Shown: positions 19,547-19,945 of the stretch, one piece after another
Position numbering within the stretch: position 1 is the stretch's first letter
Layout of the letters: each line of letters begins with the position of its first letter
Source of the DNA: Raillietiella orientalis
Taxonomy: Eukaryota
Assembly (NCBI GenBank): GCA_036172245.1
Contig: JAYWIR010000027.1
Location: 930,001-994,000, forward strand
Direction of reading: 5' to 3'
Length of the DNA: 64,000 nt
Translations under genes and position numbers: made by a program
Notes under the pieces: generated by a model
The model's input: only the letters and a program-made list of their open reading frames with translations
Told to the model about the DNA's origin: nothing
Databases searched by the model: none

Positions 19547-19945
19547 TCACACCAACGCGAGGTCATACTCATCTTCGTAGTCGAGGTACTCTCTCCAGTC
19601 CAGCTGTTCCTTGAAATCCCTCCTCAGCTCCAGCCACTCGTTGAGTGCCATGAAGGATATCCCGAAGTGCTCCATATGATCCTGGATATGGAGTTCGTCC
19701 ACCCCCTTGAGAAGGAACCTGCTGTAGTTCTGGGGATTCTCCTCGACTCCCAACACCAGCTGGAGCAGCTGCGTGGCAGTGAAGATCTTCATCTTGGCCA
19801 GGTGCTCCTGCAACTTCTCCTCGATCCCAGGGACCGCGGTCACCGGCTGGTTCCGGAGAGACATCTTCTGGAATTTCCGGTAATCGTTCTTGTGCCTCTG
19901 AACGCTGGGAGGGACCTCTTCCAAGAAGTATTTGCTCTCCAACAT
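19547..19945 (-). CDS. Divergent barrier-to-autointegration factor (BAF/BANF)-like protein, 132 aa, intronless CDS
   Basis: The ATG at 19945 (caagATG) opens MLESKYF...LALV*. DYRKFQKMSLRNQPVTAVPGIEEKLQEHLAKMKIFTATQLLQLVLGVEENPQNYSRFL aligns without gaps to human BAF [58 protein letters not shown], and SFMALNEWL matches CFGCLREWC. Composition is protein-like, unlike the flanks, and AATAAA lies downstream. Confidence 0.8.
   Translation of the reverse strand: MLESKYFLEEVPPSVQRHKNDYRKFQKMSLRNQPVTAVPGIEEKLQEHLAKMKIFTATQLLQLVLGVEENPQNYSRFLLKGVDELHIQDHMEHFGISFMALNEWLELRRDFKEQLDWREYLDYEDEYDLALV

Follow-up and report, generated by a model that had tools for sequence, protein, structure and literature searches.

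BAF (BANF1), a hub protein of small size and high conservation, serves in DNA bridging, in rebuilding the nuclear envelope and in the restriction of foreign DNA. It has a compact, all-helical fold, binds dsDNA irrespective of sequence and is an obligate homodimer, in whose groove LEM domains are bound. It is a dimeric, DNA-bridging and LEM-binding protein of metazoans, with a length of ~89 amino acids and an N-terminus that is regulated by phosphorylation. As human BAF is mildly acidic too, a loss of DNA binding cannot be predicted from charge alone. To our knowledge, BAF-L (BANF2) is the only characterised paralogue of BAF, and we know of no acidic tail in it.

Excerpts of PMC2173821 propose backbone contacts to DNA for two glycines of human BAF, Gly-25 and Gly-27, and report that the substitution G25E abolishes DNA binding. 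In a passage of PMC7378220 the G27E protein serves as a non-DNA-binding mutant control, in agreement with the statement of a first-pass annotation of the locus described here that G27E impairs DNA binding. The same annotation held that G47E affects the dimer interface, a point on which the sources disagree: G47E is described in a passage of PMC5638020 as dimerisation-deficient, with reduced binding to DNA beads and no LEM recruitment, whereas an excerpt of the 2002 study still sees a dimer peak for 47E (PMC2173821). The substitution K6E, which the annotation also held to impair DNA binding, did not occur in any of the papers searched.

The available portion of PMC13443024 describes BAF-L as 53% similar to BANF1, heterodimerising with BAF, binding DNA more weakly and enriched in testis and pancreas. 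The earlier characterisation of BAF-L was that of a testis-enriched, non-DNA-binding paralogue. In cichlids, banf2w is a lineage-specific copy-number variant, and BAF-L has three exons in tilapia (excerpt of PMC8268354). Among CC-licensed PMC papers and bioRxiv preprints, we found no description of a protein of the BAF family that ends in an acidic tail, nor of a retrocopied BAF.

The locus described here is an open reading frame in a window of 64 kb, that is, the whole stretch of DNA that was analysed. Our tentatively favoured reading, to which we give a little less than an even chance, is that of a lineage-restricted gene with a single coding exon, encoding a highly diverged BAF-type protein that would have lost DNA binding and would act via protein contacts. 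The gene itself, its relation to BAF and the proposed loss of DNA binding carry different degrees of confidence and are taken in this order.

The coding sequence (19547..19945, minus strand) is complete and occupies a single exon, running from ATG to TGA and encoding 132 amino acids, according to both the ORF listing and its translation. Its start codon is the first in-frame ATG within an open frame of 462 codons, and no Met was found in the 330 open codons upstream of it. The codon-position GC of the CDS (GC1/2/3) is 0.57/0.24/0.81. Upstream of the ATG it is flat at ~0.7/0.7/0.7, and the pattern switches exactly at the ATG, with a GC2 of ~0.2 and a GC3 of ~0.8 in every block from there onward. 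The upstream 330 open codons were considered as a part of the protein and rejected for their flat codon-position GC and lack of Met. Taken one by one, the N-terminal extension (0.47/0.27/0.73), the core and the acidic tail (0.62/0.17/0.75) of the encoded protein all show the coding-like pattern.

The GC3-GC2 contrast of the ORF is 0.58, which ranks first among the 358 stop-to-stop ORFs of the window that have 100 aa or more and was reached by none of 20000 shuffles of the ORF's own bases (z = 9.5). In-frame stops were absent in 37 of 20000 such shuffles. The CDS has a CpG observed/expected ratio of 0.59, against 0.83-0.99 in the remainder of the 64 kb, measured in segments of 4 kb, and the GC of the ORF is 0.54 against ~0.65-0.75 in its flanks. 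A GC2 of 0.24 amid flanks of this composition suggests that the amino acid sequence has withstood the GC pressure of its surroundings, or else that the insertion is very recent. Taking together the intact frame, the codon-position contrast and the shuffle controls, we consider the ORF to be very probably a real coding gene.

Both ends of the coding sequence are accompanied by candidate signals. An AATAAA at 19469..19474 (minus strand), 72 nt past the stop, is a candidate polyadenylation signal. Counting both strands, the window has 14 copies of the hexamer where 4.27 are expected, and by our own arithmetic there is a chance of ~1.5% that one lies 10-150 nt past the stop in the right orientation. 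The 5′ flank (19946..19965, minus strand) is a pyrimidine run that ends in AG (...cttccctcctcaag) directly ahead of the ATG, has A at position −3 and could represent either a Kozak context or the 3′ splice acceptor of a 5′UTR intron. A 40-codon sliding scan of the window found no other coding-like block outside low-complexity sequence. The segment with the second highest GC3-GC2 contrast (25720-26290) was rejected as a second coding region, being low-complexity and triplet-biased and matching no Pfam family at E<=1e-3. The ORF is the sole convincing coding segment in the window, and the first-pass description of a lone, intact 132-aa ORF with a candidate polyadenylation signal is confirmed.

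The window has a GC content of 53-66% and a CpG observed/expected ratio of 0.83-0.99 throughout, hence no vertebrate-style CpG depletion. Long frames without a stop abound in this GC-rich sequence, where 39 of them extend over 250 aa or more from stop to stop. On the upstream side of the ORF, at a distance of 1.1 kb, lies the 3′ remnant of a LINE reverse transcriptase (21069-22294, plus strand), which is oriented divergently from the ORF. It contains a frame of 244 aa that matches an RVT_1 protein of 619 aa with an E-value of 1.2e-30, and within the remnant lies a zf-RVT match (21785-22291), the sole Pfam family at E<=1e-3 in the scan of the other ORFs described below. A second, short LINE remnant is found at 60360-60566, and the interspersed repeats of the window are old (69-79% identity) and unclassified. 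The surroundings had been called a retroelement graveyard. The two LINE remnants and the old repeats agree with this name in part.

A close examination of the immediate surroundings did not place the ORF within a repeated element. Comparison of 18000-21500 with the window by blastn gave one 62-nt match (21402-21463), and the window contains no repeats overlapping the ORF, no terminal or inverted repeats bracketing it and no second copy or relative of it elsewhere. There is no poly(A) tract near the ORF and no A-run after the AATAAA. A direct repeat of 22 nt with 86% identity (19350-19371 and 20792-20813) flanks the ORF and may be due to chance. It was rejected as a target-site duplication because its downstream copy lies ~100 nt past the AATAAA and is not preceded by an A-run. 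A retrogene origin is possible, given the intronless coding region.

The ORF might also be non-functional, as a recently dead BAF-family retrocopy or as a frame that still lacks a stop. This would agree with its single exon, with its position in a gene-empty and repeat-bearing region close to a LINE remnant, with the richness of GC-rich DNA in long open frames and with the lack of detectable relatives (see below). We nevertheless consider it improbable. The ORF is not itself GC-rich, and its frame seldom stays open when its own bases are shuffled. The GC2/GC3 contrast, which is exact at both the ATG and the stop, is unexpected after long neutral decay in DNA of ~0.7 GC, and the start context and the AATAAA are intact. 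The missing poly(A) tract and the 22-nt repeat, which does not read as a target-site duplication, also speak against it.

The best Pfam family of the encoded protein is SAM_BAF (PF02961), with an E-value of 1e-4 and a score of 23.1 bits, which is below the 25-bit gathering cut-off. The match is a single stretch that aligns residues 22-104 with positions 7-84 of the 88-position profile, and thus covers the domain well beyond its helix-hairpin-helix (HhH). The membership in the BAF family claimed at first pass is therefore supported by the choice of family and by the near-whole coverage of the domain, and not by the score. If the frame is read from stop to stop (462 aa), no Pfam family is found at E<=1e-3. 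Besides this ORF, 535 stop-to-stop ORFs of the window were compared with Pfam, comprising all 149 of at least 160 aa, 99 of 70-159 aa in 13000-27500 and 287 of 80-159 aa elsewhere, so that the lower size limit was 70 aa in 13000-27500 and 80 aa outside it. An E-value of 1e-3 or better was reached once, by the zf-RVT match, which is a true LINE match, and the SAM_BAF E-value for this reason deserves some trust.

A second line of evidence comes from a protein-language-model atlas. The whole protein gives a recognition value of 2696 and a top match of 0.93, with BAF clusters accounting for 15 of the 30 matches and 165 shared features. Residues 14-109 again give BAF clusters in 15 of 30 matches, with a score of 0.93 and 180-184 shared features, where at least 170 is typical of true family members, a mark that is not calibrated for protein parts. 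The typical length in the BAF clusters is 90-91 aa. BAF is thus the best family of this protein by profile and by language-model features alike.

Searches at the level of single sequences and structures gave less. With phmmer, neither the whole protein nor the core found a BAF chain in the PDB at E<=10, only unrelated enzymes at E 0.78-1.7. The AlphaFold2 models, calculated without an alignment, are helical and unreliable for both the whole protein (pLDDT 40.7) and core residues 14-109 (pLDDT 46.5). In these low-confidence models the HhH, which sits where it is expected, is followed by several short helices. When the core model, low in confidence as it is, was compared with the PDB using Foldseek, nothing was found at E<=0.001, and there was no BAF in the 11 rows at E<=10. 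A homodimer prediction with two copies, made without alignment or controls, scored 0.00 against a mark of 0.32, which gives no verdict. With a sub-threshold Pfam score, no BAF match in the PDB, no relatives and models of low confidence, we regard BAF ancestry as probable, not proven.

We also noticed that the N-terminal half of the protein independently matches the HhH of Y-family polymerases in three weak hits, through Pfam IMS_HHH (residues 30-54, E 0.12), the DNA polymerase family phrog_1268 (residues 23-63, E 0.0014) and NCBIfam Pol IV (residues 28-63, E 0.14). The likeness is weak (E 0.0014 to 0.14) and confined to the HhH and the following helix (residues ~23-63), and there is no polymerase domain. 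It confirms the HhH as a shared structural motif, and not membership in a family.

A real gene that is not derived from BAF is conceivable on this basis, namely one for a generic HhH or SAM-like small helical protein whose resemblance to BAF comes from a shared HhH and helical periodicity. The Y-family matches fit such an origin, as do the sub-threshold Pfam score, the solved BAF chains without a pairwise match and the lower ranks of the atlas, which are taken by bacterial and archaeal HhH families (HHH_5, DUF4332, Cdd1) at 0.84-0.88. It appears unlikely to us all the same, since the Pfam match extends to profile position 84 of 88, well past the HhH, and the other HhH families of Pfam are ~1000-fold worse (E 0.12 against 1e-4). 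In addition, the BAF clusters make up half of the atlas matches, and the core shares features with them in the range of true members, with the same proviso that this range is uncalibrated for protein parts.

Relatives were sought in several large collections. Among 5.8 billion clustered proteins none was found at near lengths (3 candidates, 0 scored) or at longer lengths (195 candidates, 0 scored). The 1.84 billion representative proteins contained no convincing relative; their single match, to an internally tandem-repetitive protein of 601 aa, was in 7 short stretches and was judged spurious. Pattern searches gave 8 matches in 2.9 million viral contigs, 169 in metagenome contigs and 87 in prokaryote genome contigs, with 0 relatives in each case, and a tblastn search of phage records returned 7 records, all at E>=3, with no relative among them.

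The atlas raises the question of a viral source. One of the three equally good clusters for the core is half viral (79 aa, with PF02961 on 23% of its members), and so is another cluster that was found with the whole protein. The protein resembles virus-encoded BAF homologues, which occur outside animals, in being small, BAF-like and long diverged, and the half-viral clusters score as high as the cellular ones. It differs from them in having no viral context in the window, and the viral cluster of the atlas has 79 aa and no tail. A viral or mobile-element BAF-like gene that was endogenised, for instance from a large DNA virus with a BAF homologue of its own, and that is now functional or not, would in addition account for an intronless and isolated ORF that is poorer in GC than its flanks and for which the collections searched yielded no cellular relative. 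Several observations speak against this decidedly improbable origin: the window has no further viral or transposon gene beyond the LINE remnants, which lie on the opposite strand; the ORF has no bracketing terminal or inverted repeats and is not repeated in the window; and the 2.9 million viral contigs hold no relative. The GC3 of 0.81 matches the GC-rich background of the host, so that the gene is compositionally at home.

The encoded protein has three parts. The N-terminal extension (19901..19945, minus strand; residues 1-15, MLESKYFLEEVPPSV) lies outside the BAF profile and is followed by the BAF-like core (19622..19900, minus strand; residues 16-108), defined by Pfam SAM_BAF and the atlas. 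The C-terminal tail (19550..19621, minus strand; residues 109-132, RDFKEQLDWREYLDYEDEYDLALV) begins past the end of the BAF profile and is acidic and rich in Tyr and Trp. The Pfam coordinates imply ~15 extra N-terminal residues, a net insertion of 5 residues in the domain and the tail of 24 residues. An N-terminal extension, an insertion and an acidic/aromatic tail (WREYLDYEDEYDLALV) had all been recognised before and are all present. The protein is like BAF in its best Pfam family, in covering profile positions 7-84 of 88, in its atlas clusters and in having an HhH in the expected position. It is unlike BAF in its length (132 aa against ~89-90), which reflects these added parts, in its sub-threshold Pfam score, in having no pairwise match to solved BAF chains and in the residue at the second hairpin glycine.

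A closer inspection of the HhH (19796..19846, minus strand; residues 34-50, PVTAVPGIEEKLQEHLA), the segment with the weak Y-family polymerase matches, revealed a hairpin that reads V38-P39-G40-I41-E42-E43 (VPGIEEKL). The first glycine is kept, and codon 42 (19820..19822, minus strand), at the expected second glycine of the G-h-G hairpin, is GAG and encodes Glu. The GIE reported at first pass can be read directly in the sequence. Of the two hairpin glycines of BAF, Gly-25 and Gly-27, the protein therefore lacks the second, where the equivalence of E42 and G27 is derived from the motif G40-I41-E42 and not from a tool alignment. The BAF consensus has Gly at the position occupied by E42. The further replacements that had been proposed on the basis of a gapless alignment to BAF over ~58 residues, of K6 by D21 and of G47 by Q62, would follow from a gapless register with human BAF. 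In an alternative register with a short insertion, which we take to be equally plausible, R17 or K19 would stand at the K6 position. The equivalence of K6 with an Asp is accordingly weak, as it depends on the register of the alignment.

The charges are distributed unevenly along the protein. The 24 residues of the tail include 9 D+E and 3 K+R, corresponding to a net charge of ~−6.2 and a pI of 4.05. Core residues 14-108, with 12 K+R and 12 D+E, are electrically neutral, and the whole 132-aa protein has a pI of 5.1. Basic residues (R17, H18, K19, R23, K24, K27, R31) are clustered just N-terminal of the HhH.

The properties of E42, the neutral core and the strongly negative tail lead us to the favoured reading of a diverged BAF-type protein without DNA binding. 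Since a Glu at this hairpin position kills DNA binding in human BAF, and the core is neutral and the tail strongly negative, an action through protein contacts appears most likely. On this reading, the Glu at the second hairpin glycine would remove the geometry of the DNA-contacting hairpin, and the protein would work by protein-protein interactions instead of bridging DNA. It may form heterodimers with the canonical BAF of the organism, and so modulate it as BAF-L might, or alternatively it may occupy or compete for the partners of BAF. The acidic tail may cover what is left of a DNA-binding face, or it may bind to basic proteins of chromatin. A BAF fold, dimerisation and a regulatory role are all presumed in this scheme. 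The proposal of the first-pass annotation that the protein is a regulator of BAF without DNA binding is likewise something that we infer from the sequence, and a germline retrogene, germline expression or a part in a conflict between host and transposable elements are speculation for this gene.

The protein might instead be an orthologue or paralogue of BAF in which DNA binding and bridging persist because further basic residues make up for the Glu, while the tail acts as a regulatory, autoinhibitory module comparable to the phosphoregulated N-terminus of BAF. This alternative would draw on the basic cluster before the HhH, on the retained glycine G40 and on R17 or K19, in place of D21, at the K6 position in the alternative register, but is very unlikely in view of the human substitutions G25E and G27E, both of which abolish DNA binding according to the excerpts cited above (PMC2173821 and PMC7378220), and of a core without net positive charge.

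A bolder version of the favoured reading, the DNA-blind BAF-type protein, can be formulated, which we consider rather unlikely. It would be a natural "G27E-type" BAF that arose in a eukaryotic lineage not sampled before, independently of vertebrate BAF-L, and acts as a dominant negative or decoy for BAF itself or for chromatin, LEM or viral proteins that bind BAF, so that defence against cytoplasmic DNA or retroelements would be tuned by a competitor subunit and not by phosphorylation alone. If this were true, the gene would encode a second, independently derived BAF-fold protein in which a laboratory-type loss-of-DNA-binding substitution occurs naturally, together with an acidic tail. It would then offer a natural experiment on the modulation of BAF by a competing subunit and widen the known range of the family.

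The closest conceptual parallel is BAF-L, as a protein of the BAF family with weak or absent DNA binding that can pair with BAF and modulate it. BAF-L has ~90 aa and is multi-exonic, whereas the present gene has a single exon and is far more diverged. If real, the protein would be a member of the BAF family with a substitution of the loss-of-binding type and a novel tail, not detectably related to BAF-L. At present its value is that of a clearly defined orphan candidate for tests of expression, conservation and binding.

No tRNA genes and no tandem repeats were found in the window. Its remaining features are a diverged 5S-rRNA-like sequence (16186-16306, 49.9 bits) and a near-perfect inverted duplication of 786 nt.

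Across all 64 kb of the window, GC content lies between 0.53 and 0.66 and the CpG observed/expected ratio between 0.83 and 0.99, only one coding-like ORF is present, and neither tRNA genes nor tandem repeats were found. The window is an unusually GC-rich, CpG-undepleted and gene-poor eukaryotic region.

The surroundings of the BAF-like ORF, an intact 132-aa frame on the reverse strand (19547-19945), include the remnant of a LINE. A remnant from the 3′ portion of a LINE-type reverse transcriptase lies at 21069-22294 (+), 1.1 kb upstream of the ORF and in divergent orientation, and was located by protein match, by tblastn and by a Pfam scan that places a zf-RVT motif at 21785-22291. 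A 244-aa LINE frame matches a 619-aa RVT_1 protein with an E-value of 1.2e-30 and 51% identity, and tblastn with the RVT_1 protein as query recovered this locus together with a second 3′ remnant at 60360-60566 (+). The BAF-like ORF is also flanked on both sides by a 22-nt direct repeat, with copies at 19350-19371 and 20792-20813 that are 86% identical and spaced 1442 nt. No poly(A) tract adjoins either copy of this repeat, which may be due to chance.

The GC3-GC2 contrast, a codon-position measure by which the BAF-like ORF ranks first among the ORFs of at least 100 aa in the window, is second-highest in a low-complexity, triplet-biased block at 25720-26290 (both strands) with runs of ATC/CTC/AAC-type codons. 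Its sole Pfam match is a weak one to HHV-5_US34A (E = 0.0039; frame 25990-26328, +). A diverged 5S rRNA-like sequence at 16186-16306 (+) aligns to the 5S rRNA model end to end, scoring 49.9 bits against a gathering score of 38, and probably represents either a 5S pseudogene or a repeat derived from 5S.

Old, unclassified interspersed repeat families of 69-77% identity occur at 16854-17139, 38307-38538 and 49950-50159, and also at 36358-36798, 43855-44311 and 50837-51134. A 786-nt sequence is present in opposite orientations at 43398-44183 and 50806-51591, with 99.9-100% identity and 6.6 kb between the arms. Both arms lie within long open frames, neither of which matches a Pfam family. The pair could have arisen by recent duplication in inverted orientation, could be a foldback element, or could be an artefact of the assembly.
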